A stretch of 55,652 bases of DNA, taken from the NCBI GenBank assembly GCA_002269645.1, contig NIVC01004201.1, forward strand, positions 1-55,652, read 5' to 3'. This stretch comes from Macrostomum lignano (taxonomy: Eukaryota). A program made the position numbers and the translations under genes. Positions within the stretch are counted from its first letter, which is position 1; each line of letters begins with the position of its first letter. The notes under the pieces are model-generated. The model made no database searches. It was not told where the DNA came from and saw nothing but the letters and a program-made list of their open reading frames with translations. Shown here one piece after another: positions 6,147 through 55,652 of this stretch.

Positions 6147-7500
6147 TCAGACCACGGTGTACACAGCATTAAGGAAGTAACCGCCGCAGGTCTCGCTGGG
6201 CTTGCCTGGGCACTGGATTTTGCACAGGTCGTCGTCAACTTTGCCGTACTTGCCGAACACGTTGCCGCACCAGCAGTCGTAGTTTTGAACGCCGAAGAAT
6301 CTGAGCTTCTTTAGCCGGCACATGGAATTGCAGCCCAGAATGGTGAGCATGTTGCTCCTGCCGCCAAGGACTGGAAAGTCCTTCTTGACTGGGTCGTCCT
6401 TGTAGCAGCCATTGTAACCTGGCCTTGCTTCCATGGCTCTGTAGCCCATGTAGCCGTATTGTAGTACATCAAATGCTGCGCCAACGGCTGGATTGGGAAG
6501 TTTGCAGGAGGCGGCTGGTGAAGGATCTAGTTGATTGCTTTATTGCGGTGTCGGTTGCTAATGGGTGATGAATCAGGGTGTTGTCTAAGAGGTGGTCAGA
6601 CTCTAATTAACAAGTTTGTCAGGCTCTAATCGATGAGGTGTCAGGCTTAAATCGATGAGTTGTGTCAGGTTCCAATCGGTGAGGTGTGTCAGGCTCTAAT
6701 CGGTGAAGTGTGTCAGGCTCTAATCGGCGAGGTGTGTCAGGATCTAATTGGGGAGTTGTGTCAGGCTCTAATCGGTGAGTTGTGTCAGGTTCTAAGCTAC
6801 GAGCCTATGAAACATCAGGCTCTAATCGGTGAGGTGTGTCAGGATCTAATCGGGGAGTTGTGTCAGACTCTAATCGGGGAGTTGTGTCAGACTCTAATCG
6901 GTGAGTTGTGTCAGGTTCTAAGCTACGAGCCTATGAAACATCAGGCTCTAAACGGTGAGGTGTGTCAGGATCTAATCGGGGAGTTGTGTCAGACTCTAAT
7001 CGGGGAGTTGTGTCAGACTCTAATCGGTGAGTTGTGTCAGGTTCTAAGCTACGAGCCTATGAAACATCAGGCTCTAATCGGTGGGGTTTGTCAGGCTCTA
7101 ATCGGTGGGGTGTGTCAGGCTCTAATCGGTTGGGTTTGTCAGGCTCTAATCGGTGGGGTGTGTCAGGCTCTAATCGGTTGGATTTGTCAGGCTCTAATCG
7201 GTGAGGTGTGTCAGGCTCTAATCGGTGAGTTGTGTCAGGTTCTAAGCTACGAGCCTATGAAACATCAGGCTCTAATCGGTTGGGTTTGTCAGGCTCTAAT
7301 CGGTGAGGTGTGTCAGACTCTAATCGGTGGGGTGTGTCAGACTCTAATCGGTGGTGTGTCAGACTCTAATCGGTGGGGTGTGTCAGACTCTAATCGGTGA
7401 GGTGTAAGGTCTCGAACTCACCTTGACAGGCCTGAGCAGATGAAGTGAAACACGCAGCTGTCAGGAGAAACGCAGAGAGAAAACCGACAGCCAAGCGCAT
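6147..7500 (-). CDS. Secreted single-WSC-domain protein, paralog 2 (exons 7500-7422 and 6487-6147, ~139 aa)
   Basis: Signal exon MRLAVGFLSAFLLTAACFTSSAQACQ ends at a GTGAG donor, phase 1. Acceptor AATCCAG is homologous to paralog 1. WSC domain is identical to paralog 1. Confidence 0.85.
6595..7405. repeat. Expanded 24-bp intronic minisatellite in WSC paralog 2
   Basis: Same unit as 1125-1350, with a recurring longer variant (CTAAGCTACGAGCCTATGAAACAT). Confidence 0.9.
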
Positions 7501-13267: not shown

Positions 13268-14494
13268 ATGATTTTTTTAGCAAAATGTTGTGCATCTTCA
13301 TGGAAAATAAGCCATCGCCAGCTGGCAATATTTACTATAGTTGCTACGCTGAGTCTCTACTATGTCTTCATCCTGTGGTCATGGAGTAGGAACGAAAAAG
13401 TGTGCAAGCAGATGAACATTGCTGCAAGGCCAAGACGTCAACTACCGAATCTGCCGTCTCCTGAATTCTACATCCAGAAGCTGAGAAGACAGACGCCGCC
13501 TCGTGGTGACAAGTTCGATCCTCGGATAAATGAGACCGAGCTGAGAGCCGCTGTGAAACTGATATGGGCGTTTCTGGACCTGTGCGAGAAGCACGGCCTC
13601 CAGGTGATGTTGGATTCTGGAACTCTTCTGGGCTCCTACCGATACCACGGCTTCATGCCATGGGATGATGATTTTGACGTGTTTCTCAAATGGGCTGACA
13701 ATAAGAAGCTGTTAAAGGCGCTGAATGGGTGAGTCATCACTAAGTGCAAACTTTTTTATGGCCTGCATGGTCCAATGAAGCACGACGATTTTTCTTGGAC
13801 AAAATTTGTCGCTAGCAAAGATTATTCTTGCAATAGCTGTCCCATATCACCAGTTGCAAAGATTGAATACTTTGCAACTTGTATTTGTTATCCGAGTGTC
13901 CGAGAAGATTGTGTCCACATTAAGAAATCAGTTCAACTAATTAAGAATTTAGGCCCTTCATGGATATTAGATAATTTCGTAATAACTATATTTATGACAA
14001 AATCCCTTAGACATCCGGATTTTAATCTGAAAGACGTCGGTTTGTGGAAAGTTTCGCTCAAGTCTGCTTGTCTACACGTGGACGTGAGCGGCTGCTGGCC
14101 CTTCATCGACGTGGCATTCTACGAGGTGCAGGGCAGCTGGATGGTGCAAAAGTTCGGCAGATTTTACGCACCAACAAAGTACACGTTTCCGTTGCACAAG
14201 CGACCGTTCATGGGCCGCTGGGTGGACTCACCCAGGGATACAGAAAAATTTCTTGAATACTTATATTTTGGATTTTGGCCACTCGACTGGTGCTTAACAT
14301 CGACGTATTCTCACAAATATGAAAAGTCAATTTATTCTCGCGCTTTCATAAAATGTTCGAAGCTCCACGAGACCTACCCTTTTGTGATTCGTGTCCCGGA
14401 CACGGAAACATGGTGTGCCGGCGTCGTGGGGACGTTGAAGCTTCCGAACGGCGAAACGGTTTACTCTGTGATGGTTGATGAGCCGGTGGCTTGA
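13268..14494 (+). CDS. LicD/fukutin-family phosphotransferase, type II membrane protein (exons 13268-13728 and 14011-14494, ~314 aa)
   Basis: N-terminal TM segment; LicD motif DSGTLLGSYRYHGFMPWDDDFDV; WPFIDV; phase-2 GTGAG...CTTAG intron joins the two ORF-track pieces in frame. Confidence 0.88.
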
Positions 14495-23884: not shown

Positions 23885-26800
23885 CAGACTGACAGTCAGA
23901 GACTAGCAGTGAGAGACTGACAGTCAGAGACTGGCAGTGAGAGACTAGCAGTGAGAGACTGGCAGTGAGAGACTGGCACTGAGAGACTGGCACTGAGAGA
24001 CTGGCACTGAGAGACTGGCACTGAGAGACTGGCAGTGAAAGACTGCCACTGAGAGACTGGCAGTCAGAGACTGGCACTGAGAGACTGGCACTGAGAGACT
24101 GGCACTGAGAGACTGGCACTGAGAGACTGGCACTGAGAGACTTGCACTGAGAGACTGGCACTGAGAGACTGGCAGGGAGAGACTGGCACTAAGAGACTGG
24201 CACTGAGAGACTGGCAGTCAGAGACTGGCACTGAGACACTGGCACTGAGAGACTGGCACTGAGAGAATGCCACTGAGAGACTGGCAGTCAGAGACTGGCA
24301 CTGAGACACTGGCACTGAGAGACTGGTACTGAGAGACTGGCACTGAGAGACTGGCACTGAGAGACTGGCAGGGAGAGACTGCCACTGAGAGACTGGCACT
24401 GAGAGACTGGCACTGAGAGACTGGCACTGAGACACTGGCACTGAGAGACTGGCACTGAGAGACTGGCACTGAGGGACTGGCACTGAGAGACTGGCAGGGA
24501 GAGACTGGCACTGAGAGACTGGCACTGAGAGACTGGCACTGAGAGACTGGCAGTCAGAGACTGGCACTGAGAGACTGGCAGGGAGAGACTGGCACTGAGA
24601 CACTGGCACTGAGAGACTGGCACTGAGAGACTGGCACTGAGAGACTGGCACTGAGAGACTGGCAGTGAAAGACTGCCACTGAGAGACTGGCAGTCAGAGA
24701 CTGGCACTGAGAGACTGGCACTGAGAGACTGGCACTGAGAGACTGGCACTGAGAGACTGGCACTGAGAGACTTGCACTGAGAGACTGGCACTGAGAGACT
24801 GGCAGGGAGAGACTGGCACTAAGAGACTGGCACTGAGAGACTGGCAGTCAGAGACTGGCACTGAGACACTGGCACTGAGAGACTGGCACTGAGAGACTGG
24901 CACTGAGAGACTGGCACTGAGAGACTGGCAGTGAAAGACTGCCACTGAGAGACTGGCAGTCAGAGACTGGCACTGAGAGACTGGCACTGAGAGACTGGCA
25001 GGGAGAGACTGGCACTGAGAGACTGGCACTGAGAGACTGGCACTGAGAGACTGGCACTGAGAGACTGGCACTGAGAGACTGGCACTGAGAGACTGGCAGT
25101 GAGAAACTGGCAGTGAGAGACTGGTACTGAGAGACTGGCAGGGAGAGACTGGCACTGAGAGACTGGCACTGAGAGACTGGCACTGAGAGACTGGCAGGGA
25201 GAGACTGGCACTGAGAGACTGGCACTGAGAGACTGGCACTGAGAGACTGGCACTGAGAGACTGGCAGGGAGAGACTGGCACTGAGAGACTGGCACTGAGA
25301 GACTGGCACTGAGAGACTGGCACTGAGAGACTGGCACTGAGACACTGGCACTGAGAGACTGGTACTGAGAGACTGGCAGGGAGAGACTGGCACTGAGAGA
25401 CTGGCACTGAGAGACTGGCACTGAGAGACTGGCACTGAGAGACTGGCAGTCAGAGACTGGCACTGAGAGACTGGCACTGAGAGACTGGCACTGAGACACT
25501 GGCACTGAGAGACTGGTACTGAGAGACTGGCAGGGAGAGACTGACACTGAGAGACTGGCAGGGAGAGACTGACACTGAGAGACTGGCACTGAGAGACTGG
25601 CAGGGAGAGACTGACACTGAGAGACTGGCAGGGAGAGACTGACACTGAGAGACTGGCAGGGAGAGACTGGCACTGAGAGACTGGCACTGAGAGACTGGCA
25701 GGGAGAGACTGACACTGAGAGACTGGCAGGGAGAGACTGGCACTGAGAGACTGGCACTGAGAGACTGGCAGGGAGAGACTGACACTGAGAGACTGGCACT
25801 GAGAGACTGGCACTGAGAGACTGACACTGAGAGACTGGCACTGAGAGACTGGCACTGAGAGACTGGCACTGAGAGACTGGCACTGAGAGACTGGCAGGGA
25901 GAGACTGACACTGAGAGACTGGCACTGAGAGACTGGCACTGAGAGACTGACACTGAGAGACTGGCACTGAGAGACTGGCACTGAGAGATTGGCACTGAGA
26001 GACTGGCACTGAGAGACTGACACTGAGAGACTGGCACTGAGAGACTGGCACTGAGAGACTGGCACTGAGAGACTGGCACTGAGAGACTGGCACTGAGAGA
26101 CTTGCACTGAGAGACTGGCACTGAGAGACTGGCAGGGAGAGACTGGCACTAAGAGACTGGCACTGAGAGACTGGCAGTCAGAGACTGACACTGAGAGACT
26201 GGCACTGAGAGACTGGCACTGAGAGATTGGCACTGAGAGACTGGCAGTCAGAGACTGACACTGAGAGACTGGCACTGAGAGACTGGCACTGAGAGACTGG
26301 CACTGAGAGACTGGCACTGAGAGACTGGCACTGAGAGACTGGCACTGAGAGACTGGCAGTCAGAGACTGGCACTGAGAGACTGGCACTGAGAGACTGGCA
26401 CTAAGAGACTGGCACTGAGAGACTGGCACTGAGAGACTGGCACTGAGACACTGGCACTGAGAGACTGGCACTGAGAGACTGGCACTGAGGGACTGGCACT
26501 GAGAGACTGGCAGGGAGAGACTGGCACTGAGAGACTGGCACTGAGAGACTGGCAGTCAGAGACTGGCACTGAGAGACTGGCACTGAGAGACTGGCAGTCA
26601 GAGACTGGCACTGAGACACTGGCACTGAGAGACTGGCACTGAGAGACTGGCACTGAGAGACTGGCACTGAGAGACTGGCAGGGAGAGACTGCCACTGAGA
26701 GACTGGCACTGAGAGACTGGCACTGAGAGACTGGCACTGAGACACTGGCACTGAGAGACTGGCACTGAGAGACTGGCACTGAGGGACTGGCACTGAGAGA

Positions 26801-29685
26801 CTGGCAGGGAGAGACTGGCACTGAGAGACTGGCACTGAGAGACTGGCACTGAGAGACTGGCAGTCAGAGACTGGCACTGAGAGACTGGCAGGGAGAGACT
26901 GGCACTGAGACACTGGCACTGAGAGACTGGCACTGAGAGACTGGCACTGAGAGACTGGCACTGAGAGACTGGCAGTGAAAGACTGCCACTGAGAGACTGG
27001 CAGTCAGAGACTGGCACTGAGAGACTGGCACTGAGAGACTGGCACTGAGAGACTGGCACTGAGAGACTGGCACTGAGAGACTTGCACTGAGAGACTGGCA
27101 CTGAGAGACTGGCAGGGAGAGACTGGCACTAAGAGACTGGCACTGAGAGACTGGCAGTCAGAGACTGGCACTGAGACACTGGCACTGAGAGACTGGCACT
27201 GAGAGACTGGCACTGAGAGACTGGCACTGAGAGACTGGCAGGGAGAGACTGGCACTGAGAGACTGGCACTGAGAGACTGGCACTGAGAGACTGGCACTGA
27301 GAGACTGGCACTGAGAGACTGGCAGGGAGAGACTGGCACTGAGAGACTGGCACTGAGAGACTGGCACTGAGAGACTGGCACTGAGAGACTGGCACTGAGA
27401 GACTGGCACTGAGAGACTGGCAGTGAGAGACTGGCACTGAGAGACTGGCACTGAGAGACTGGCAGGGAGAGACTGGCACTGAGAGACTGGCACTGAGAGA
27501 CTGGCACTGAGAGACTGGCAGGGAGAGACTGGCACTGAGAGACTGGCACTGAGAGACTGGCACTGAGAGACTGGCACTGAGAGACTGGCACTGAGAGACT
27601 GGCACTGAGAGACTGGCACTGAGAGACTGGCACTGAGAGACTGGCACTGAGAGACTGGCACTAAGACACTGGCACTGAGAGACTGGTACTGAGAGACTGG
27701 CACTGAGAGACTGGCACTGAGAGACTGGCACTGAGAGACTGGCACTGAGACACTGGCACTGAGAGACTGGCACTGAGAGACTGGCACTGAGACACTGGCA
27801 CTGAGAGACTGGTACTGAGAGACTGGCACTGAGAGACTGGCACTGAGAGACTGGCAGGGAGAGACTGACACTGAGAGACTGGCACTGAGAGACTGGCACT
27901 GAGAGACTGACACTGAGAGACTGGCACTGAGAGACTGGCACTGAGAGATTGGCACTGAGAGACTGGCACTGAGAGACTGACACTGAGAGACTGGCACTGA
28001 GAGACTGGCACTGAGAGACTGGCAGGGAGAGACTGACACTGAGAGACTGGCACTGAGAGACTGGCACTGAGAGACTGGCACTGAGAGACTGGCAGGGAGA
28101 GACTGACACTGAGAGACTGGCACTGAGAGACTGGCACTGAGAGACTGACACTGAGAGACTGGCACTGAGAGACTGGCACTGAGAGATTGGCACTGAGAGA
28201 CTGGCACTGAGAGACTGGCACTGAGAGACTGGCACTGAGAGACTGGCAGTGAGAAACTGGCAGTGAGAGACTGGTACTGAGAGACTGGCAGGGAGAGACT
28301 GGCACTGAGAGACTGGCACTGAGAGACTGGCACTGAGAGACTGGCAGGGAGAGACTGGCACTGAGAGACTGGCACTGAGAGACTGGCACTGAGACACTGG
28401 CACTGAGAGACTGGTACTGAGAGACTGGCAGGGAGAGACTGACACTGAGAGACTGGCAGGGAGAGACTGACACTGAGAGACTGGCACTGAGAGACTGGCA
28501 GGGAGAGACTGACACTGAGAGACTGGCAGGGAGAGACTGACACTGAGAGACTGGCAGGGAGAGACTGGCACTGAGAGACTGGCACTGAGAGACTGGCAGG
28601 GAGAGACTGACACTGAGAGACTGGCAGGGAGAGACTGGCACTGAGAGACTGGCACTGAGAGACTGGCAGGGAGAGACTGACACTGAGAGACTGGCACTGA
28701 GAGACTGGCACTGAGAGACTGACACTGAGAGACTGGCACTGAGAGACTGGCACTGAGAGACTGACACTGAGAGACTGGCACTGAGAGACTGGCACTGAGA
28801 GATTGGCACTGAGAGACTGGCACTGAGAGACTGACACTGAGAGACTGGCACTGAGAGACTGGCACTGAGAGACTGGCACTGAGAGACTGGCACTGAGAGA
28901 CTGGCACTGAGAGACTGGCACTGAGAGACTGGCACTGAGAGACTGGCACTGAGAGACTGGCACTGAGAGACTGGCACTAAGAGACTGGCACTGAGAGACT
29001 GGCACTGAGAGACTGGCAGTCAGAGACTGGCACTGAGAGACTGGCACTGAGAGACTGGCACTGAGAGACTGGCACTGAGAGACTGGCACTGAGAGACTGG
29101 CACTGAGACACTGGCACTGAGAGACTGGTACTGAGAGACTGGCAGGGAGAGACTGACACTGAGAGACTGGCAGGGAGAGACTGACACTGAGAGACTGGCA
29201 CTGAGAGACTGGCAGGGAGAGACTGACACTGAGAGACTGGCAGGGAGAGACTGACACTGAGAGACTGGCAGGGAGAGACTGGCACTGAGAGACTGGCACT
29301 GAGAGACTGGCAGGGAGAGACTGACACTGAGAGACTGGCAGGGAGAGACTGGCACTGAGAGACTGGCACTGAGAGACTGGCAGGGAGAGACTGACACTGA
29401 GAGACTGGCACTGAGAGACTGGCACTGAGAGACTGACACTGAGAGACTGGCACTGAGAGACTGACACTGAGAGACTGGCACTGAGAGACTGGCACTGAGA
29501 GACTGGCAGGGAGAGACTGACACTGAGAGACTGGCAGTGAGAGACTGGTACTGAGAGACTGGCACTGAGAGACTGGCACTGAGAGACTGGCACTGAGAGA
29601 TTGGCACTGAGAGACTGGCACTGAGAGACTGGCACTGAGAGACTGGCACTGAGAGACTGGCACTGAGAGGCTGACACTGAGAGGC
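23885..29685. repeat. 5.8-kb 14-bp satellite (GAGACTGGCACTGA)n with higher-order structure
   Basis: About 400 tandem units with recurring variants. Confidence 0.97.
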
Positions 29686-31348: not shown

Positions 31349-32386
31349 ATGAAGCTGCCGATTCTGCTGCTGCTGCCTCTACCACAAATCCTGCTGGCGT
31401 CTCACGGGCTGCAGCGCCAAGCTGAGTTCCGCCGGCTGAGCAGCGCCAACGGCTCGGCAGCGCCGCTGCGCTTTCACTTGAGTTGCGGCAGCTCCGCCAT
31501 TGACTGCGCAAGTCGCTGCGCTGAGCTGGGCGACTGCTTCGGGTTCGCCTTCGTCAGGCTGCTCTGCCGGCTGTTCACCTTCGGTGCCTTCTTCGACAGC
31601 TGGACGGCCTCCGAGCCGGGGACCGCCGTTTTCACCCGGCCGCTCAGTGAGTCTATATGGATATCCTTAGTGCTGAAAGCAATGCATTTCAGGATTGATA
31701 AAACCAGCGCCGAGACAAATCTGACCATTCGGCTGACTCTTGAGCACAGTGCAAGCTCGCCAACACTGTACGCAGGCACTCATGCACTCGCTCACACAGG
31801 GTGTTACCGTGGCACTTACTTTCTAATAGTCAGGCATTTGCACTCTCTGTGCCTTTGGGCTGGGGGTTGGCGATCATGGCTGTGGATCGCAAGACAACCC
31901 ACCGGCCAATTTTCATGCACACAAGTCGACGGAATCGATCAGTTATCACTTCAAGCATACAATTTATTAACCTGCTCAGATATGGTCCAGCTGCCGATGC
32001 AGAGCTGCTCTCAGAGTTCAGTATACGACGACGGCGTCTGCTCCCGAGCTATCGACGGCAACACTGATCAAGATCTAACCCAAGGCTCCTGTACCCATAC
32101 CGGCTGCTGGCCCAGTATGCGGCAGTGGTGGACCGCCAACTTCTCTGCTGCATCGTTTGTGTCTTACGTGATCATCTACAACCGGATGGACTGCTGCTCA
32201 AAGAGGCTGGACGCATTCTCCATCCTAATGGATGGAGTCAGCTGCGCTGAGAGAAACGAAACGTTCTCATTCTCGGTCGGCAACTTCACGTGCGGCAGAT
32301 TCGGCAGTCAGCTGACTGTGCTCAACAGCCCGGCAGAGTGCCTGAGCATGTGCGAGCTTAAAGCCTATGGCTTCAGGTTCCCTTGA
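31349..32386 (+). CDS. Secreted PAN/apple-like + F-type lectin (fucolectin, F5/8 type C) protein
   Basis: Signal peptide; C-x3-C...C-x2-F...C pattern; SQSS...RAIDGN...SCTHT...WW...IYNRMDCCSKRL contains the F-type lectin H...RxDx4R motif. A hidden in-frame intron cannot be excluded. Confidence 0.82.
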   Translation: MKLPILLLLPLPQILLASHGLQRQAEFRRLSSANGSAAPLRFHLSCGSSAIDCASRCAELGDCFGFAFVRLLCRLFTFGAFFDSWTASEPGTAVFTRPLSESIWISLVLKAMHFRIDKTSAETNLTIRLTLEHSASSPTLYAGTHALAHTGCYRGTYFLIVRHLHSLCLWAGGWRSWLWIARQPTGQFSCTQVDGIDQLSLQAYNLLTCSDMVQLPMQSCSQSSVYDDGVCSRAIDGNTDQDLTQGSCTHTGCWPSMRQWWTANFSAASFVSYVIIYNRMDCCSKRLDAFSILMDGVSCAERNETFSFSVGNFTCGRFGSQLTVLNSPAECLSMCELKAYGFRFP

Positions 32387-46158: not shown

Positions 46159-46869
46159 ATGGAGACAGTGCAAGACTTCAACTGCGTCAAGCGAGAGCTG
46201 CTGGCACTCAAACCGCGAGGTCCGAGCTTCAACGGGGTTGAAACGTTTGACATTGAATATGACGAACAGGGACCTCTCTACTTGGCCAATGCGGTCCCTG
46301 TTTTGATCGTCAAGGGCGTGCGTACTGACAACGAAGGTCGCGAATTCATCATCATTGCACAAAAACACATTGAAAGCTGCATACCCTACACTTTCAACAC
46401 TGTGGCGGAGCACCTTTCCAGCGAAAGTCTAGCTCTGCTGGGCTACAACCCAGCGTTTGGAGGTGACAGTGCAGCGTTTGGGCTGGCTCACGACTTTAAA
46501 ATGTACGACCAAAACGGACTGCCTGTAGAGGATTACAAAAACAAGAGCGGCTACTACAGGATTCTGTTTACTCTCGACACGGCCGTGATTCGAGACGCTG
46601 TTTTGACCGCAATGCCAAAAATTCAACAGCTACAGTTTGTCGAAGAAGCCAAACAGGCATTCGATCGTTGCTATTGGACGCCACCTCCAAAAATCAAGGT
46701 AGGCGCTAAGAAAGTAAGCAAGAAAGCAAAGAAACCACCAAAGCTTGTCAAGGAGAAGCAGCCAAAGGTGCCTAAAAATCAGGCCAGAAAGCGACAGCAT
46801 CAATCGAAACTAGTAGCAGCCAACGAATCAAAGAAGCGGTCGAAAGCCCCAAGAAGGATACGAAAGTAA
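46159..46869 (+). CDS. Polinton protein, possible OB-fold ssDNA-binding protein with a Lys/Arg-rich tail (236 aa)
   Basis: Beta-rich pattern ending YRILFTLDTAVIRDAVLTAMPKIQQLQFVE, reminiscent of gp2.5-like viral SSB C-terminal strands; very basic tail. Function is inferred. Confidence 0.6.
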   Translation: METVQDFNCVKRELLALKPRGPSFNGVETFDIEYDEQGPLYLANAVPVLIVKGVRTDNEGREFIIIAQKHIESCIPYTFNTVAEHLSSESLALLGYNPAFGGDSAAFGLAHDFKMYDQNGLPVEDYKNKSGYYRILFTLDTAVIRDAVLTAMPKIQQLQFVEEAKQAFDRCYWTPPPKIKVGAKKVSKKAKKPPKLVKEKQPKVPKNQARKRQHQSKLVAANESKKRSKAPRRIRK

Positions 46870-46888
46870 AAACTGCCGAAAAATCTAC

Positions 46889-47368
46889 TTGCAGAACGTC
46901 GAGTGTGTGAACCGAGTGTTTTGCGCGAAATGGAGCCGCATGCCTGACTTGGACTGGGCGAGCGCACGGACATTTCGCAGACCAAGAGCTCTTATCAATT
47001 TGCGAATAGGAAAGTGTACAATCAACTTTTTTCAGCGTTCTTTGTCTGCAATTGTATTCGGTTGTCGCTCAGTCAACCAAGTTTTGCGTCTTTTTCCTCA
47101 ATGTAAACCAATTTCTGTTGTTGTTACCACTAGTACTTACCGCGCTGAAGTAGACAGATGGCCAAACTTTTTCCAAATTGCATACTCCGGGTCCCGCTGG
47201 GTGAAGTGGGAGTGTGAAGTTTTCAATGGAATAGTAATAAAGTCTCCATTTCGCAATGCTAAATGTTTATTATGCGGAAAGAATGGCCGCCTTGTTTTCC
47301 TTGGAATACGAAACTTTAAAGAGCTCTGTCAAATGTACGATCATGTGACTAGCGTTTTGCATGTCTAA
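46889..47368 (+). CDS. Divergent TATA-binding-protein (TBP)-fold protein
   Basis: Two-repeat TBP pattern: NRVFCAKWSRMPDL ~ NIVSTVNLGCKLDL; ALINLRIGKCTINFF...IVFGCRS ~ AVIMRIREPRTTALIF...VCTGAKS; WECEVFNGIVIK ~ YEPELFPGLIYR; LLCGKNGRLVFLGIRNFKELCQMYDHV ~ [27 protein letters not shown]. No ATG before the first motif. Confidence 0.7.
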   Translation: MQNVECVNRVFCAKWSRMPDLDWASARTFRRPRALINLRIGKCTINFFQRSLSAIVFGCRSVNQVLRLFPQCKPISVVVTTSTYRAEVDRWPNFFQIAYSGSRWVKWECEVFNGIVIKSPFRNAKCLLCGKNGRLVFLGIRNFKELCQMYDHVTSVLHV

Positions 47369-47508
47369 TCCATGTAGCTGTTGCGTAACTTTACTGCTTT
47401 ACCACTGTACCGAATTTGTATGTACGTACAAGCTGCTATGAAATTGTCTATAAATATATTGTGCATAAATTGCAGTGCACTGCAACCAACATCTTTTTGC
47501 TAAACAAA

Positions 47509-47865
47509 ATGACAAACGGAATCTCCAGACTATGTTCTTGTCGCGGCGAGCTCGCAGAGCTCGCCAAAGCCCGTCCCACTCTTCGGCGGGCCATTATTCG
47601 AGGTGCAGGCAAGGAACTGATTCATTGTCTCTGTGAATTGAGTCACAACGTGCTCCGGGGAAATATCGATCTTTCTCCGAAACAGTATCTGCGATTAAAG
47701 CGATACAGAAGATCGTTGCGTGAATTGGCAGACACAAAATTGTCTATAAATAGGAAGAAGAATATGCTTCTCTCGAATCCTCAAGTCGGTGGCTTTCTAC
47801 CCATCCTTGCATCTGTTGCTGCACCGCTAATATCAAGCCTGTTTGGCGGACTACTTGGTCGCTAA
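47509..47865 (+). CDS. Conserved small basic Polinton/adintovirus virion protein with an adenain-type cleavage site and amphipathic tail
   Basis: LIHCLCELSHNVLRGNIDLS...LKRYRRSLRELAD...QVGG|FLPILASVAAPLISSLFGG; ATG 60 bp after TATAAATA. Confidence 0.8.
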   Translation: MTNGISRLCSCRGELAELAKARPTLRRAIIRGAGKELIHCLCELSHNVLRGNIDLSPKQYLRLKRYRRSLRELADTKLSINRKKNMLLSNPQVGGFLPILASVAAPLISSLFGGLLGR

Positions 47866-47866
47866 A

Positions 47867-48517
47867 ATGAATAAATACGTTGTTGTACCAGAAGAAGAAT
47901 TTAATAGACTAAGTCAAGGCGCACCCCGAGAAATTGCATCCAAAACAGAATATGAAAAACTCATTGAATACAACACTCAACTCCAAAATAAACTAAGTCA
48001 GATCAAGCAAAAGAAGAGTAATCGTTTTCCTGAACGACAACAACGTGTTTGGGACATGCTGACAGAAAGATACCCAAATTTGGAGTACAACAAGTCGTGG
48101 GAAATTGTATTTGATGGAAAAACCTGGCCAGGAAGCAATATTTTCGATCTATTGAAGGAGATTACATCGAATGAAAGGCGCGACCGCCCAAGCCCAAAAT
48201 ATAGTACCGCTTTTTGGGCCCTGGCCGAAGAGGCAGATATTGCAAAAGCTCTACTAGGACGACGCCAACAAGAAGAAGTCAGTGTGAAAAAAGAAGTCGG
48301 CACGGATCCGGATCGAGACGATTTTTTAGTCGAGCAAGCAATTGGAACTAATGATTTCTACAACGACTTCCACAAAGACCAAGCCAGTGGCCTGAATGAA
48401 ATTAAAAAATATGAAGATCGTGGCAGCAATGCCTACAGGCATGCTTCATACCAACTTCGCGAACCAAAGAGGCGGCAGAAACCAGCAGTAAAATACGAGA
48501 CGTTAAAAAAACTATAA
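47867..48517 (+). CDS. Conserved Polinton protein of unknown function (GSNIxDL motif)
   Basis: MNKYVVVPEEEF start and EIVFDGKTWPGSNIFDLL resemble a family recurrently found upstream of Polinton integrases. Confidence 0.72.
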   Translation: MNKYVVVPEEEFNRLSQGAPREIASKTEYEKLIEYNTQLQNKLSQIKQKKSNRFPERQQRVWDMLTERYPNLEYNKSWEIVFDGKTWPGSNIFDLLKEITSNERRDRPSPKYSTAFWALAEEADIAKALLGRRQQEEVSVKKEVGTDPDRDDFLVEQAIGTNDFYNDFHKDQASGLNEIKKYEDRGSNAYRHASYQLREPKRRQKPAVKYETLKKL

Positions 48518-48654
48518 ATAGAAATCATTTTCATGATTTATAATCTGTTTTTGGATCATGGGTGCCGCAGCTGTAACTTCAAAGCTTTGCTCAGACAAAC
48601 CGTCTGTGGAGTTCAAGTGTAATTACTCATGCTGTGCATCGAATCTAGTTGCGA

Positions 48655-49722
48655 ATGAGGGTGAAAACCGCTCTTCGGAGAGTGTACGAACAGGGGGACG
48701 CCGCTTTTACAAATGCTGCCCGTGTATATCAGGAGGCCAAACGGCTGGTCCCCTCCCTGACGAGACGCCAAACAGACGAATGGCTGAAGACCCAATCGAG
48801 CTACACCCGGCACAAGAGGGTTAAAAGAAAATTCCGAACCGGAAAAGTAATGTCGGGAGGCTTCATGGAAACTGTGCAAGCGGATTTGATGGACATGTCG
48901 CGATACGAACAATGGAATGATGGTCATCGATATATTCTAGTTGCAATTGACGTGCTTAGTAAATTGGCTTTTTGTCAGTCAATAAAATTGAAAAGCGACA
49001 CTCCAAAGGCTTTTGAAAGCATGATCAAAGACTTCCCCATTAAGCCTTTATATCTACACGTTGATCGAGGTACCGAGTTTTATAACAATCGCATGCAGAA
49101 CTTACTGAAAGCCCATAATATCAAAATGTACAGTACAAACTCTGTATACAAGGCAAATATGGCTGAAAGGCTGATTAGGACTCTCCGAAAACGTTTAGCT
49201 CGCTACTTTGAGCATAAAAACACGTGGCGTTGGATCGACTATTTGCCAATATTGGTTAAAAGTTACAACAACACAGTACACTCTACTATTGATATGAAAC
49301 CTTCGAGTGTCGGTCTGCACAATCAAAAAGAATTGTGGGAAAAGCTCTACAAGGATCCTGAATATGATGAACCAGTTTACCAAAAAGGGGACTTTGTCAG
49401 AATTTCAAAATCTCGTCGAGCCTTTGACAAGGAAGCATACGATATGTACAGCGAAGAAGTTTACGTTGTGTCTCAAGTATGCCCGGGACCGCCTCATTTT
49501 TATCGCATTTCCGACCTATCTGGAGAACAAATCGAGGGTCGATTCTACTATAATGAACTTTCAAAGACGGTTCGACCGGACCGCTTTGTTATAGACAAAA
49601 TTCTGCGTCGCAATGTCATCATCAATGGTGTCGCTCATCATTTCGTTAGTTGGCGCGGCTATCCCGAGTCGTTCAATGCATTTGTACCAGTTGAGGAAGT
49701 TATAAATATAAGACAAGGATGA
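48655..49722 (+). CDS. Retroviral-like (RVE) DDE integrase with C-terminal chromodomain
   Basis: VQADLMDM (D), LHVDRGTEF (D), ANMAERLIRTL (E); chromodomain IDKILRR...FVSWRGYPESFNAFVP. ORF is intact. Confidence 0.95.
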   Translation: MRVKTALRRVYEQGDAAFTNAARVYQEAKRLVPSLTRRQTDEWLKTQSSYTRHKRVKRKFRTGKVMSGGFMETVQADLMDMSRYEQWNDGHRYILVAIDVLSKLAFCQSIKLKSDTPKAFESMIKDFPIKPLYLHVDRGTEFYNNRMQNLLKAHNIKMYSTNSVYKANMAERLIRTLRKRLARYFEHKNTWRWIDYLPILVKSYNNTVHSTIDMKPSSVGLHNQKELWEKLYKDPEYDEPVYQKGDFVRISKSRRAFDKEAYDMYSEEVYVVSQVCPGPPHFYRISDLSGEQIEGRFYYNELSKTVRPDRFVIDKILRRNVIINGVAHHFVSWRGYPESFNAFVPVEEVINIRQG

Positions 49723-49756
49723 ACACACATACACTCGAAACGTGTAGTATATTACA

Positions 49757-50910
49757 ATGCATCTATTCCTACCTAGCAATGCGTGCGTTGAGCACTATCC
49801 TGAGAATAATTCGGCACATTATAGCATTAATTTGCCCGACACCCTCCACTTTCCGAATCATGAAGTCTGCATCGAACGGATCTACTTTTGTAAAGAATTC
49901 AAAACCGTCCCCGATAATCGAATGGTTGATGTCCTGACCAACGCTCCCGAGGATGAAGTGATTGACATTGAGGTGAGAGAAAAACCCGCCTCCACGTATA
50001 AACAGTTTGCGTCGGTTTCTCTCGCCGCGGGGCTATCAACAGCCAACGAAGTGGTTGATGCAATCATCGCCGATCTAAAATATGAGCAAGACGATAATGC
50101 GATGATTTGCATTGAGCGTTCACAGGAAGGCCAAATTTCAATTGTGAACAAATCATGGTATGGTGCGAACATTAGGCTGTCCAGTAATGTGCGTAGCATG
50201 TTTAAAAAGGTTGATGACGCTGGAAATAAATCAAATATCGAAGTAACGACTTTTTTATTAAACCCAAGAAATTCGTTAGTATTCGCTATAGAATTGGAGT
50301 CCTCCTCCTCCATAGAGAGTCCGATGACTCTAACGTTTGAAAAGAGTGTCTGGCCTTCTAGAACGTCACTGCGGATTGCTAAAGGATTCTACCGCACGCC
50401 TGATGAGCTCTTAAATTATGTTAATGGAGCGCTTTGGGGCGTCGTTTCAAAGCTCCCAATAAGTCCAGCGACGAGAGTGGATGCATTCCGCTACAACCCT
50501 TTTCTGAACCGGTGTGAGTACAAACCCATTGAAAACATTTTATTCGACATTGGAGAGCTTGCTGCCATTCTCGGCTTTCGCGAAGATGTTTTCAATGAAA
50601 CTCCAAAGACCGCTAAACGACCAATCGATTTAACAAATGGTGTACAAACTATGTACATCTATTCAAATATTGTCGACTCTGCCATTGTTGGAGACGTCAA
50701 AGTCCCCCTGCTTGGGCAATTCCTTTGAATGAAAAGGTATACGGCGAACGAGAGTACTACGAGTTTGTCAATCCATCCTACTTACCGTTGGTGAAACACC
50801 CATTCAAAACCATTGAGGTGCAAATCTGTGACGATATGGGCAAGTTAATGGATCGGATTCTTCGAGGCAAAACTGTTTTATCGATCAACATTCGTGAAAT
50901 TAAGCTATAA
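49757..50910 (+). CDS. Minor capsid (penton-like) protein; one 1-bp frameshift at ~50712
   Basis: LFLPSN...YPENNSAHYSINLP...L start; IYSNIV...IVGDVKVPLL and FVNPSYLPL...FKTIEVQICDDMG...GKTV.SINIR end. Adding one G to CTTGGGCA joins ORFs 49757-50728 and 50725-50910. Confidence 0.85.
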
Positions 50911-50954
50911 ATAAAGAAGTTTTCACGAATAAAAGGTAGCAACTGATCGACAAT

Positions 50955-51323
50955 ATGCCTTCAATCTTGATCGGAGGAGCTTTACCGGTATTTTCCGGTG
51001 CACAGCGCGGCAACGGCCTGTTTGGCAGCATTGCCCGATTTGCCCTGCCAATTTTAAAGAGTTTTGGCAAAAATATTCTTCGCCACGGAACACGAGCCCT
51101 AGCTACAACAGTTAGCGACACACTCGATCAAGGCGGGAACTTGAAAGAAGCGGCATTGCGTAACTCTGTCCAGGCAGCTAAAGATGCTTTCAAGGACACA
51201 GTCGCACAACGAGGTAGCGGCAGACAAAGACGAAGAAAGATGACTAACAAAAAAACGAGAAAAAGACTGCAGCATTCTGATATTTTCGACTCTATAAATA
51301 AAAAAACCCGTGCCAATAACTGA
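50955..51323 (+). CDS. Basic core-like Polinton protein (pVII-like) with two QRGxG motifs
   Basis: FSGAQRGNGLFGSIARFALPILKSFGK...QRGSGRQRRRK...HSDIF pattern typical of the protein preceding Polinton MCP. Confidence 0.8.
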   Translation: MPSILIGGALPVFSGAQRGNGLFGSIARFALPILKSFGKNILRHGTRALATTVSDTLDQGGNLKEAALRNSVQAAKDAFKDTVAQRGSGRQRRRKMTNKKTRKRLQHSDIFDSINKKTRANN

Positions 51324-51366
51324 TCTGTCTATTAGAGCACCACACTAAGCCGCTGTTGAAAGAAAA

Positions 51367-52649
51367 ATGACTGAGTGCCTGTGTACAAAGTCGGAATTCG
51401 AGCTATTTGCTCCTCGCGCACACCAAATTGCTGCAATTAGCGCTACCACTGAAGAAGTTCACCCTGTTGCCAGTGTTGAAAATGCCAGCGTGGTCGAATT
51501 TAGGATTGTTGGTGGTGAGACGTTTATCGATCTTAACGACATTGACCTCGAGATTAAGGCCCGCGTTAAGCAGTCTAATGGTACAAATCTTGCTGCTGAT
51601 TCGAATGTTGCGCCGGTCAATTACGTCCTTGAAAGCATGTTTAAAAACGTCACGTTGACAATCAACGGGACACACGTAGAGTCGAGCAATAACAACCACG
51701 CTTACAAGGCCTATATTCGCACGTGTTTGAATTACGGACACGATTCAAAAACCAATCAACTGAGAATGATGGGCTACGCAAAGGACGCTGGAGGTCAAAT
51801 GGCTGTGGTTGGAAATCCTGGCTTTGTAGCCCGCAAGGCGATGGCGGCAAACTCACGCACCTTTCACCTTTATGGACCTCTTAGTTTAGACTTTTTTGTT
51901 ACCAACGACCGAATGCTACTGCCATACACTGATATGGTAATTACGCTGACCATGCACAATTCCGGCTTCGTTCTGGAAAACCACGCGGACGGGGTTGATG
52001 CGCGGCTAGTACTCGAGAGTGCCAAACTACATGTGCGCCGCGTCAAGGCAAACCCCCAATTGGCATTGGAGATTGAAGAACAACTAGGCAAACAGAATGC
52101 AATCTATCCGATTGAGCGACTTGTTGTGCACAATACTTCAGTGGCTGGCGGTGTTCGGGACATGTCAATCAATAATATATTTCCTGAACAAAAGCCTAAA
52201 CTAGTGGTTGTTGGCATGGTGAACAGCGGCGCATACAACGGTGTGGCTACACATAACCCGTTTAATTTTGAACCGTTTGGGCAGACAGTGTCGCTCTGTA
52301 TAAGGACGGAGTCAGTCTGTGTGGACAACCGTTTACTCCTCGATTCGGTGTTCATAACTATGCTCGCGAGTATGCCATGCTACTAAAAAGCCTAGGAAAG
52401 ATGAATCGGGACCTGGATATTGACGTATCATATTCCGACTATGGAGCTGGCTACTGCTTCTTCGCCTGGAATCTCATGCCCGACATGGAGCTGGGCGGGC
52501 ATAGCATGCCTCGCGAGCGAGGGAATCTGACGCTACAAATAAAGTTTTCTGCTGCCTTGGCCGCAGGAATCAACGTGTTGGTGTTTGGCTACTTTGACAA
52601 TACTGTGCAAATCACTCGCGGTCGTCAGGTTATTCTAGACTACGTGTAG
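51367..52649 (+). CDS. Major capsid protein (double jelly-roll, hexon-like); one 1-bp frameshift at ~52280
   Basis: CTKSEFELF, FIDLNDIDLEIKARV, APVNYVLESMF, HAYKAYI, NPFNFEPF; continues in the -1 frame as ADSVALYKDG...YGAGYCFFAWNLMPD...GNLTLQIKF...L...INVLVFGYFDN. Confidence 0.92.
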
Positions 52650-52699
52650 AAACAAACATCTCTTTTTTATTCTCGAATAACGACCATATTCATGCCGAT

Positions 52700-53149
52700 A
52701 TGAATAGTCTAGATATATTAGAACGTCTAATACTACCTGTCCCTGTTCGAGTAACACCAGTTGACAGGATTCCGCAGCCTGTTTATCCTGCTGCATACGT
52801 GATTAACTTTGACACTGGCAATCTACCAGGCACTCACTGGGCTTTAATTTGTCTTCATGCCGATGAGAGCGTGACATTTTTTGACCCCTTGTGTATCGAT
52901 CCTGTGCCAGATTTATTAAAGTTGTGGATCGCAAAGTATGTCCCTGTGGAGGTGGCCATGAACCGGCATCCTGTACAGCATCCGCTGAGTGTGACCTGCG
53001 GGGCTCATGTAATATTTGTGGCTGAAAAACACTTTCTGGAGGGTCTGTCAATTGAAAAAATATTGCGCGACTGTTATAGCACAAATCTTTACGAGAACGA
53101 CTTGATGGTGCAGAATCACTGTCTACAAATAAAGCAGCATCATCCATAA
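52700..53149 (+). CDS. Adenain-like cysteine (maturation) protease
   Basis: YVINFD...PGTHW (His), FFDP (Asp), VQHPLSVTCG (Gln, Cys). Confidence 0.92.
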   Translation: MNSLDILERLILPVPVRVTPVDRIPQPVYPAAYVINFDTGNLPGTHWALICLHADESVTFFDPLCIDPVPDLLKLWIAKYVPVEVAMNRHPVQHPLSVTCGAHVIFVAEKHFLEGLSIEKILRDCYSTNLYENDLMVQNHCLQIKQHHP

Positions 53150-53151
53150 AT

Positions 53152-53801
53152 ATGATTGGGCTGCCTATCAAAATGTATCAAACAATAGACCCCGACTCTT
53201 TAAAATTTGCCCCCAAAACGTCTGCAATTTTTGCTGGGGTGGCTCAAAGCGGCAAGACCACACTTGTGAAAAACCTATTGAGACAAGAATTTTTTCAAGA
53301 TCCGAAGCCGATTCGCGTAGACTGGTTTGGCCACTATCCGGATCCTGAACTGTTTGAATTGCCGTACCCTGTAAATTTTCGTTCGTGTACATTTGATCCT
53401 GAACAATATGTCCCTGAACCAAATATTCTGCTTGTCGTCGACGACCAAATGCATGCCATGGAAAAGAGTGGCGCTTTTACAACTTTTTTCACGCGCAAAG
53501 TCTCCCACGTGGGGTTCCGACTTTGGTATCTTGTGCAAAACCTGTTTGCAAAGGGTAAGGAGCACCGAACTCAGTCGCTCAATTCGAACTACCTTGTTTT
53601 ATTCCGCAATGTACGGGATGCCAGCACAGTGTCTCATATTGCAAGGCAGCTGGTCCCCACTAATCCAAAAAGTTTTGTCAAACGTATGAGGATGCTACTC
53701 GCGACCCCTACTCATACTTGATTGTAAACTGTTTGCAAAATGCTCCTGCTCGCTATTATTCAAACGTTTTGGGTCGTCACCCAATTGTGTATGCTAAATA
53801 A
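53152..53801 (+). CDS. FtsK/A32-like genome-packaging ATPase; one 1-bp frameshift at ~53682
   Basis: Walker A GVAQSGKT, Walker B LLVVDD, VQNLF, SLNSNYLVLFRNVRD; the -1 frame continues YEDATRDPYSYLIVN...* ending at 53801. Confidence 0.92.
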
Positions 53802-53960
53802 ATATACGTATCAAAGTTCGGCCGGCTTTTTGTGTAAATATATATACGCCTTTTGAAAACTTATTTGGGAGAGGGGGTTGGTGGATGACGTAATTGTCTC
53901 GGAGTGTCGACGAGGGCTGAATTCTAGAGAGTGAAGTATGGAAGGAGTGGATATAACAGT

Positions 53961-54667
53961 GTGGATAGCGGCGATTTACAGCGGCTGACTCATCATGCCT
54001 CCGCGCGGGGCCGCCAATTAATTGTGGGGGTCAAAGAATATTTTCTTGGATGGGTGGGCGCTACAACTCTGTGCGTACGCGAAGTTTGGTATATAAACAG
54101 CTATGGGTTGGGTGGGCGCTACAATTCTGTGCGTACACGAAGTTTGGTATATAAACAGCTATGGGGTGGGCGCGGCGCTACAATTCTGCGCGTACACCAA
54201 TTTTGGGATGGACAGTAAATATGGACAAGTAATAATATAGACGTTATGGGGTGGGTGAGCGCTACAATTCTGCGCGTACACCAATTTTGGGATGGACAGT
54301 AAATATGGACAAGTAATAATATAGACGTTATGGGGTGGGTGAGCGCTCTAATTCTGCCAATTTTTGGTATATGGACAGTTAATTCTGCGTACACCAATGC
54401 TGCATTGTGTGGGGATGGCGCGCGCGCGTTTCTACGTACAACAACGGTGAAGCGCTAATTATGCGTACTATATTGTACTCGTCGCTGCTGTACGATACAG
54501 TGTACACTGATTACATGTATAGATTTTACATGAGAGTATAAATGTCTCACATAATGACTCTGGACCAATTAGAATCGGTCTAATGTATTTAGATAGGCGT
54601 TGAATTTGCATTGGCTCTGACACCCACCTCACCTCCAAAACCCGGCTCTATCTGCGCATTACGTAGT
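53961..54667 (-). repeat. Right TIR (~707 bp) with 84-bp x2 and 58-bp x2 units
   Basis: Reverse complement of the left TIR; ends ...GCGCATTACGTAGT. Confidence 0.95.
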
Positions 54668-55652
54668 ACTGTGAATATACGTGTTAACACTACTTAGAGT
54701 AGCTAGATAGTAGCTATGCAAGAATAATCAAAGTTGGATTAAGGGATGAGAGTTTAGATCAGAATGGCAATGGTAGATTGTATAGTATTCAACGAAGTTG
54801 TATACTATACAGAACAAGTGCATTGTACTTATACTTTCACTCAGCACGCAGTCATTATTCCACACTTTGCGGCCATTATTCCACACTTTTGCGGTCATTA
54901 TTCCACACTTTTTATCATGCTTCAATTGGCTGTTTTAAGAGTTATTTTACCCATAGACCACTGAGTTGTGTGTCTTAGTTTGACCATAGACACCGTGTGA
55001 TGAGTGCTGATTTTGCTTGCGTCTTTTAAGAAATCAGAAAAGCGAGTAGTGAGAGAAAAAGCTATTTGTCTTGTCAAACAACTATGGCTGGTGCATCTCG
55101 TCAAACAGCCGCGCTTATTAATTGGAAAAATCTTCTTGTCGACGACTGAACGAACCGTGCGGCGCAAATTCGACCATGCAGTCCTTCAACGCCTCGACGG
55201 CTATAAGCGATGCCTCAAAGCGGCCAAGATTTAGTCGAGCAGTCGACAGTCCCAAAGAATCCCAGCTTGGATACTGCGGTACCAAAGAAGCTCATCAGAC
55301 GTGCATCTTTCAAATGGTAAGTTCGGCAACTATACCTGTATTTCTCTTTTATAGAAAACATTCAAAAATAACAACTCCTTTTGCAGTGCCAAATCATCAG
55401 GCTAAAGTGTCGAGCATCTTTGAGAACTGCGGCTTTGAGAACTGCATGTTCAATCCAAATGTCAATGGTACACATCAAAACTGTGGAATAATGGCCAAAA
55501 TATTTTGTTATTACGTCTGGGCAAAAGTATAATTACAATGGAGTCTGTGAGGCGGGTGGGGATCCGGATTGGGAAGAGGATGAGATGAGGACGGGGATGA
55601 GGGTGGCATGAGACTGCCTCATGATTAGGGCTGTGAAATATGTACTAAAGCA

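Follow-up and report, generated by a model that had tools for sequence, protein, structure and literature searches.

The window, by which we mean the whole stretch of DNA analysed (55,652 nucleotides, Macrostomum lignano contig NIVC01004201.1, assembly GCA_002269645.1), contains a real, selected TBP-fold gene carried by an animal Polinton that lacks pPolB. The new parts are a predicted splice fusion and lineage-specific boxes; viral TBP mimics are already known, and TBP-like genes are established in giant viruses (NCLDVs; PMC7221094) and herpesviruses (PMC12529657).

The gene is located within a young family A element, the parts of which are listed below in window coordinates.

44132 to 54667, no strand: whole element, family A Polinton without pPolB, 10,536 bp; TIRs 99-100% complementary, flanked by a TSD
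44132 to 44922, no strand: left TIR (about 790 bp) with internal tandem units of 84 bp and 58 bp
45527 to 46063, forward strand: ORF of 178 aa without family match, kept in family B (62% identity, dN/dS about 0.1)
46090 to 46097, forward strand: canonical TATA box in the context GGGTATATAAG, 69 nt 5' of the upstream gene; the same in family B, similar in family F
46159 to 46869, forward strand: upstream gene for a 180-aa domain followed by a tail rich in Lys/Arg, with the candidate first exon at 46159-46698
46699 to 46894, forward strand: candidate intron with a phase-0 donor GTAGG at 46699, a second phase-0 donor GTAAG at 46714 and a phase-0 acceptor TTGCAG ending at 46894
46895 to 47368, forward strand: TBP-fold coding frame, candidate second exon, 157 codons; first ATG at 46940
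47449 to 47456, forward strand: TATAAATA box; other copies at 47745, 48513, 49701, 50906 and 51293 (and 45101)
47509 to 47865, forward strand: ORF of 118 aa without database match, which we take to be core-protein-like
47867 to 48517, forward strand: ORF of 216 aa without family match, with a weak relative in family C
48655 to 49722, forward strand: retroviral-type integrase with a C-terminal chromodomain (Pfam rve 2.5e-8, Chromo 0.055)
49757 to 50728, forward strand: candidate ORF of what is presumably the minor capsid protein; frame broken near its end in this copy
50955 to 51323, forward strand: basic ORF of 122 aa, assumed to be core-protein-like
51367 to 52649, forward strand: candidate ORF for the major capsid protein, presumed from motifs and position; frame broken in this copy, 27% identity to the family C counterpart
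52700 to 53149, forward strand: adenain-type maturation protease (four-protease profile: ASFV S273R 2e-6, adenain 1.8e-4)
53152 to 53721, forward strand: ATPase with a Walker A motif, weak P-loop matches only, presumably serving in packaging; frame broken near its end in this copy
53961 to 54667, no strand: right TIR (about 710 bp)

The 6-bp TSD ACTGTG occupies 44126-44131 and 54668-54673, and 6-bp TSDs were also present at four further loci (C296, C807, C150 and C181); the element ends at C1070 and C110 were less clean. With its long TIRs, TSD, retroviral-type integrase and adenain-type protease the element agrees with the Polinton location given in an earlier note on this DNA, with the exception of pPolB, for which there was neither room nor match in the window element or the mapped copies of families A and B (9.8-10.6 kb). 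Both families are presumably non-autonomous derivatives that have no pPolB. The capsid ORFs gave no sequence match in Pfam or PDB. As the three downstream frame breaks coincide with small indels in public contigs, they may be assembly errors. The upstream gene had no match in Pfam, PHROGs, PDB or Atlas, and its family F counterpart was matched weakly (probability 33%, E 4.6e-4); its 180-aa domain may resemble the SSB/OB-like fold of phage T7-type and NCLDV proteins.

Several further features of the locus were observed. The termini of families A and B read 5'-ACTAC, and those of family C 5'-AGTAG. An ORF of 88-92 aa with a Met-Gly start (48558-48824, forward strand; 6351-6629 in the family B copy L023) overlaps the start of the integrase gene in a different reading frame; the TATAAATA copy at 48513 is located about 44 nt 5' of it, and copy L032 fuses this ORF to the integrase frame. 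A partial tandem duplication (45100-45400 versus 45860-46110) takes in the end of the 178-aa ORF together with the promoter behind it, and the copy number varies among element copies, including L032. The host flank contains fragments of reverse transcriptase/RNase H, one of LicD, a 5.8-kb tandem array of a 14-bp unit and an exon for an F5/8-type domain (window 2746-4514, 13268-13732, 23886-29683 and 31349-32386); many of the long ORFs in this flank are tandem-repeat artefacts.

The earlier note had read positions 46889..47368 as a stand-alone ORF for a TBP-fold protein, both repeats of which aligned by eye. The frame is indeed open, from 46817 to 47368 on the forward strand, but the codon at 46889 is TTG, and an ATG is not reached until 46940, after the first beta-strand; the frame looks like a second exon. 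As a single sequence, the window protein gave zero matches in Pfam, PDB and Atlas, and its single-sequence structure model was unusable (pLDDT 44). Its relatives gave more: against the Pfam TBP family PF00352, for which the cut-off (gathering score) is 22.9 bits, the relative P0003 scored 24.6 bits and family G 31 bits, and the sister family B, 78% identical to the window protein, scored 22.5 bits. A Pfam search, as had been suggested, thus fails for the window protein and succeeds for P0003 and family G. Among 23 candidates there were four relatives with 61-67% identity, all of which touched Pfam TBP, one above the cut-off. A six-sequence profile produced 21 weak matches in PDB, 20 of them TBP-containing, and also four representatives, one being an archaeal-type TBP.

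AlphaFold was run on an alignment of eight element-type sequences, with cellular TBPs left out, and predicted a two-lobed saddle with a pLDDT of 84.4 and a pTM of 0.70. Foldseek returned 44 PDB matches at E<=1e-3, which were TBP or TBP-containing chains throughout the best 40 of the 44 (best E 7.6e-9, TM 0.62-0.75); the next fold followed at E 0.025. By VIA, five TBP chains were matched with Z scores of 11.8-14.0 across residues 1-159, the next fold having a Z of 7.0. The model displays the pseudo-twofold saddle, the curved beta-sheet and the convex helices of the TBP fold superfamily (VIA Z 14.0 over 157 residues). At the level of the predicted structure, the TBP saddle fold of the 46895-47368 frame can be regarded as settled, and the central claim of the earlier note was borne out by the AlphaFold and Foldseek comparison it had named. 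Identity to cellular TBPs in the structural matches was 15-20%. A global profile alignment against cellular TBPs covered 154 columns (probability 92.8%), but the N-lobe alone was undetectable by sequence profile (probability 0.2), and the alignment of two repeats therefore rests on the structure and not on what the eye had seen in the letters. The protein is basic (pI 10.0). No relatives were found in IMG/VR viral contigs, searched with four query sequences, or in JGI metagenome contigs, and thus neither a free virus nor another host context was seen.

A genome search yielded 90 matches, comprising 21 near-complete ones with 96-100% identity (family A), 21 near-complete ones with 78% (family B) and 48 partial or decayed ones, counts that overstate the copy number as the assembly seems to contain duplicated haplotypes (the host TBP occurs at three places). 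The TBP frame was open in 18 of 20 family A loci. Comparison of A and B resulted in a dN/dS of 0.076 over 157 codons, equal to that of the integrase, although this value is rough because the synonymous sites, some 70% of which differ, are near saturation. A Pfam TBP search of the genome produced 330 candidate places, of which 150 were scored; most of the 18 TBP places obtained, with the two host genes excluded, adjoin capsid-like and ATPase genes. Family C elements (about 16.8 kb) encode an integrase, PC4, pPolB and a TBP-like gene with its own ATG, and family D also has a stand-alone TBP-like gene with its own ATG. Families F and G, with 73 matches, have a TBP-like frame that is more distant and adjoins pPolB; the pair formed by this frame and its upstream gene is positioned just upstream of pPolB. 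Family E encodes pPolB and an integrase, and the stretches read gave no TBP-like match. pPolB was found in families C, E and F.

The phylogeny that the earlier note had proposed was computed as a tree of 20 rows, which has long branches and contains no NCLDV sequences. Families A, B, F and G together with P0001-3 and P0005-6 fell on one side of a supported branch (95/98), and C and D were grouped (83/82); all element sequences formed one clade with a support of 55/37, a value compatible with one capture of TBP as well as with two. The families also differ in other genes. Family B has a Fic-domain gene (Pfam 6.6e-14) and a 117-aa ORF (L023:2412-3191 and 3226-3579) that are absent from family A. 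In subfamilies of family C (L048-L064), the first TBP lobe is near-invariant and the second strongly divergent, and an upstream ORF overlaps the first lobe; the PC4 coactivator/ssDNA-binding domain of this family (L094:7173-7835, Pfam 1e-7) represents a second transcription-related gene. Family F (L113, L114; C2285) has a dUTPase (Pfam 6.8e-34) and a pPolB of 1,426 aa and seems to occur in tandem. The upstream gene of family G appears to have a further canonical intron.

Alignment with the host TBP, which like a TRF-like gene occupies a locus separate from that of the element gene, demonstrated that two of the four intercalating Phe are kept, the count that had been noticed from the letters. 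They are the second F of NFF in lobe 1 and, in lobe 2, the first of the pair, within VFNG. The other two positions are Arg and Cys, so that the four Phe of canonical TBP are not all present, and substitutions also affect the second-lobe Asn and the stirrup Pro. In the alignment, about 12 residues of the long helix in the N-lobe of host TBP are missing, and the model has a helix of 7 residues, not the full helix of canonical TBP; we take this helix to be the surface used by TFIIA, Mot1/BTAF1, TAF1 and Brf1. The two acids of the C-lobe stirrup, by which canonical TBP contacts TFIIB, are retained: the Glu pair is invariant in 19 of 19 aligned sequences, and the acidic positions are Asp/Glu in families F and G. 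No TFIIB Pfam match was obtained among the ORFs of the element. Ravarani et al. (PMC7221094) describe the stirrup acid positions as contacting TFIIB and as variable in most viral TBPs, which encode their own TFIIB. KSHV ORF24 requires all four Phe (PMC12529657), and this requirement counts against simple TBP-like DNA bending by the element protein.

How the protein is started and made requires explanation. In none of the 35 loci translated was an ATG found before the first strand in the stretch shown, and in family B the first Met is located near the C-terminus. A start-codon loss private to this copy is thereby ruled out. In families A and B, the sequence TTGCAG ends at a codon boundary just 5' of the saddle, and a GT is positioned at a codon boundary in the upstream gene. 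This phase-0 donor and acceptor were present in all scorable loci (20 of the 21 family A loci and 14 of the family B type), with two decayed copies having a changed acceptor context. The acceptor equivalents are TTTCAG in family F and TTTTAG, which includes an in-frame stop, in family G, both with T-rich tracts, and the upstream genes of these families have the phase-0 donors GTAAG and GTGAG. In all four families A, B, F and G the donor follows a W..P..K motif. The upstream genes are weakly homologous among the families and stay about 1 kb 5' of F/G-type frames in many subfamilies. The intervals between donor and acceptor measure 196-206 nt in A, 66-67 nt in B, 619 nt in F and 342 nt in G, and as all of these lengths would yield an in-frame product, a spliced fusion is predicted. 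On the conservation of these splice sites, we consider it probable that splicing links the upstream domain in frame with the TBP saddle.

Other data bear on this prediction. The splice joint was absent from four runs of public contigs, three of which were only guessed to be RNA, and two contigs from possibly RNA runs span the interval unspliced; as contigs drop rare forms, this absence is weak evidence. A search for longer fused proteins gave no match among 124 candidates. Relatives with long frames (337-473 aa) are not obviously intron-less fusions, as by coordinates the upstream domain is located in a separate frame about 1 kb 5'. The A/B interval is purine-rich and has no pyrimidine tract, with a T content of 13% in A and 8% in B. 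The donor GTAGG differs from the top donor motif of the host, GT[G/A]AG (PMC8629364). A conserved ribosomal frameshift was ruled out, since the frames are offset differently in A and B (interval lengths mostly 197 and 67). One family B copy (L030) reads through the interval, which may be an assembly indel.

Instead of a fusion, the saddle might be made as a stand-alone protein that starts either by spliced-leader trans-splicing, the leader ending in AUG, or at the near-cognate TTG at 46889, which is possible, if not what we would expect. The main alternative to the fusion is that the terminal AUG of the spliced leader is used at the same acceptor; we think this unlikely as the sole route, yet it may coexist with the cis fusion. 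With ATG as the last letters of the host leader and [T/C]TNCAG as the top trans-acceptor motif of the host (PMC8629364, PMC12582326), trans-splicing could provide an in-frame start. The acceptor fits this motif in A, B and F, and the leader sequence occurs 96 times in the genome. Cis- and trans-splicing often use common acceptors in parasitic flatworms (PMC12582326), and the failure to find the fused protein among the 124 candidates also agrees with a stand-alone start. However, a phase-0 donor at a matching motif, kept in four families, would be needless for trans-splicing, and a TTG start fails for family F as well as for family G, whose frame starts directly after the in-frame stop that forms the acceptor. 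Since the acceptor motif is common (13 in 9 kb), its weight comes from position and phase. Copies of the spliced leader (C108:361251 and 368944; C236; C240; C505) were often found paired on one strand at a distance of 7.5-8 kb, an arrangement that would fit the two LTRs of a retrotransposon, and further copies occur in arrays with 11-18 kb spacing; at the three leader loci examined, a GTAAG donor does not follow.

The in-frame fusion by splicing, which we favour, would provide a saddle for which candidate binding sites exist. Within the element interior, the coding strand has seven copies of TATAAATA and the opposite strand none (shuffle mean 0.14). Six copies are positioned 49-142 nt 5' of a gene and recur before the same genes in family B, despite the differences at about 70% of synonymous sites; six downstream genes have the box in common. 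Three copies are located within coding sequence, one of which keeps 31 of 33 bases between A and B. The TBP frame itself has no TATAAATA box, nor do the protease and ATPase genes. As some of the boxes overlap the stop codon or AATAAA of the preceding gene, they may partly be 3'-end signals. TATAAATA is a canonical TATA box, which host TBP could read without help. Family C has TTAAGAA instead, with 8 coding-strand copies in one subfamily and 9 in another, most of them 38-160 nt 5' of genes, its TBP gene included, and no TATAAATA was present in the 5.9-6.2 kb scanned per copy. No box above chance was found in the incomplete family D copy, family F has a TBP-like gene yet no enriched common box, and the AT-rich family E has no single strict box. 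That box and protein are matched in two lineages, A/B and C, is suggestive of reader-box pairs.

We give an about even chance to the reading that the protein is an element-specific late transcription factor, which reads the shared box, recruits host TFIIB and Pol II and avoids the host TBP regulators. Host machinery would first transcribe the upstream gene from its canonical TATA box. Part of the transcript would be spliced, producing the 180-aa upstream domain and the TBP saddle in frame, and the unspliced transcript would yield the upstream domain with its basic tail. The saddle would then bind the common promoter box of the element (TATAAATA in A and B), the kept acidic stirrup may recruit host TFIIB and Pol II, and the shortened N-lobe helix could let the saddle escape host TBP regulators, so that the integrase and virion genes would be switched on as a late class. 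This is supported by the TBP fold, the low dN/dS, the invariant stirrup Glu, the basic charge, the boxes and the conserved splice sites. It is weakened as host TBP could use TATAAATA, as two of the Phe that ORF24 needs are lost, as families F and D have no enriched box, as the family C box precedes the TBP gene itself, and as the protease and ATPase genes have no TATAAATA.

Alternatively, the protein might act as a repressor or decoy that occupies TATA boxes or titrates TFIIB without initiation and thereby quiets the element or damps host transcription. The lost Phe, the second-lobe Asn and the stirrup Pro may block productive bending while the TFIIB-facing acids stay, and host TBP could read the A/B box. 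We regard this as unlikely, as family C pairs a divergent TBP-like protein with the non-canonical TTAAGAA, which seemingly needs a dedicated reader, and as a decoy for host regulators should retain the N-lobe surface that is shortened here (an interface in part assumed by us and in part covered in PMC7221094). Altered specificity or a decoy role had both been proposed from the letters; the former fits the data better, given the kept acidic pair and the strict promoter-like box common to the element genes. A role in DNA handling, in which the fused saddle binds ssDNA or terminal DNA in replication or packaging and host TBP reads the boxes, is also doubtful. The predicted fusion partner, we presume, resembles phage-type SSBs, and in F and G the gene pair is positioned just upstream of pPolB. 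Giardia TBP, which lacks key Phe, is reported to favour ssDNA (PMC12209930). Nevertheless, the pair is under purifying selection in A and B, both without pPolB, DNA handling would not require the kept TFIIB-contact acids, and families C and D have stand-alone TBP-like genes. Some other mechanism has a small chance. A captured host TBP that has decayed and is now functionless would account for the missing start codon, the low identity to cellular TBPs and the lack of pPolB, but is hardly tenable and largely refuted by the selection signal, the open family A loci and the same architecture in four families.

Returning to the late factor, a wider scheme may be conceived, which we put forward tentatively and hold to be rather improbable: animal Polintons would run an early-to-late switch in which alternative splicing joins an ssDNA-binding domain to a captured TBP saddle, which would restrict late promoter firing to genomes in replication, with lineage-matched TBP and box (TATAAATA versus TTAAGAA) and host TFIIB and Pol II. 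The findings bear on how Polinton capsid genes are expressed and on whether a viral life cycle exists in animal Polintons at all, and a TBP-like factor with matching boxes offers a direct handle on Polinton expression in a laboratory flatworm. The element genes also provide natural TBP variants with two intercalating Phe and possibly different box preferences. As the gene has no ATG of its own and the single sequence misses Pfam, such genes have probably been overlooked in annotations.

The novelty of a TBP in a Polinton turned out to be lower than assumed, since the genome holds several more Polinton families with TBP-like genes and the label 'TBP' already appears in the legend to Fig. 5 of Starrett et al. 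2021 (PMC8502044; preprint 10.1101/697771), applied to MELD viruses that have an adintovirus-like PolB, where non-animal datasets are treated. In the portions of that work considered here it is a single legend abbreviation, with no residue, splicing or promoter analysis, and one supplement file contains no further mention of TBP. Likewise, no Polinton TBP is mentioned in the sections covered of the nematode Polinton paper (10.1101/2023.08.22.554363), Krupovic et al. 2024 (PMC11161782) and the Macrostomum genome paper (PMC10468722), a scope to which subscription journals and Repbase do not belong.

Compared to known systems, the element shares TIRs, a 6-bp TSD, a retroviral-type integrase, an adenain protease, an ATPase and capsid-like genes with Polintons/Mavericks (adintoviruses), but A and B lack pPolB and have termini that start with ACT instead of AGT. 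With cellular TBP/TRF (PF00352; yeast, human, archaeal) the protein has in common the full-length two-lobed saddle, the C-lobe stirrup acids, two Phe and the basic charge; it differs in its low identity of 15-20%, the two lost Phe, the shorter N-lobe helix, the lack of an own start and the predicted fusion. Among viral proteins, those matched best in structure were NCLDV TBP-like proteins, with Heterosigma akashiwo virus TBP at E 4e-8; chain 8p0j_H of the vaccinia intermediate factor reached a VIA Z of 5.4. NCLDVs mostly encode their own RNA polymerase. They also mostly encode TFIIB (PMC7221094), whereas no TFIIB or RNA polymerase was detected in the element.

The herpesvirus TBP mimics (KSHV ORF24, EBV BcRF1, CMV UL87) likewise combine a viral TBP fold, a genome without RNA polymerase and a TATA-like box 5' of structural genes, and BcRF1/UL87-type proteins matched weakly in the viral fold search. 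ORF24 has no TFIIB acids, and acts in a six-protein complex that binds Pol II directly (PMC12529657). In contrast, the element protein keeps the acids and loses two Phe, and a partner set is not evident in 10.5 kb; the 157-aa saddle is not a large protein with a Pol II-binding N-terminal domain, four Phe and five partners. At best, it works like a herpesvirus mimic without being a member of that group. If the proposed role is true, a genome of 10-17 kb would hold a pared-down equivalent of the late-transcription system of herpesviruses.
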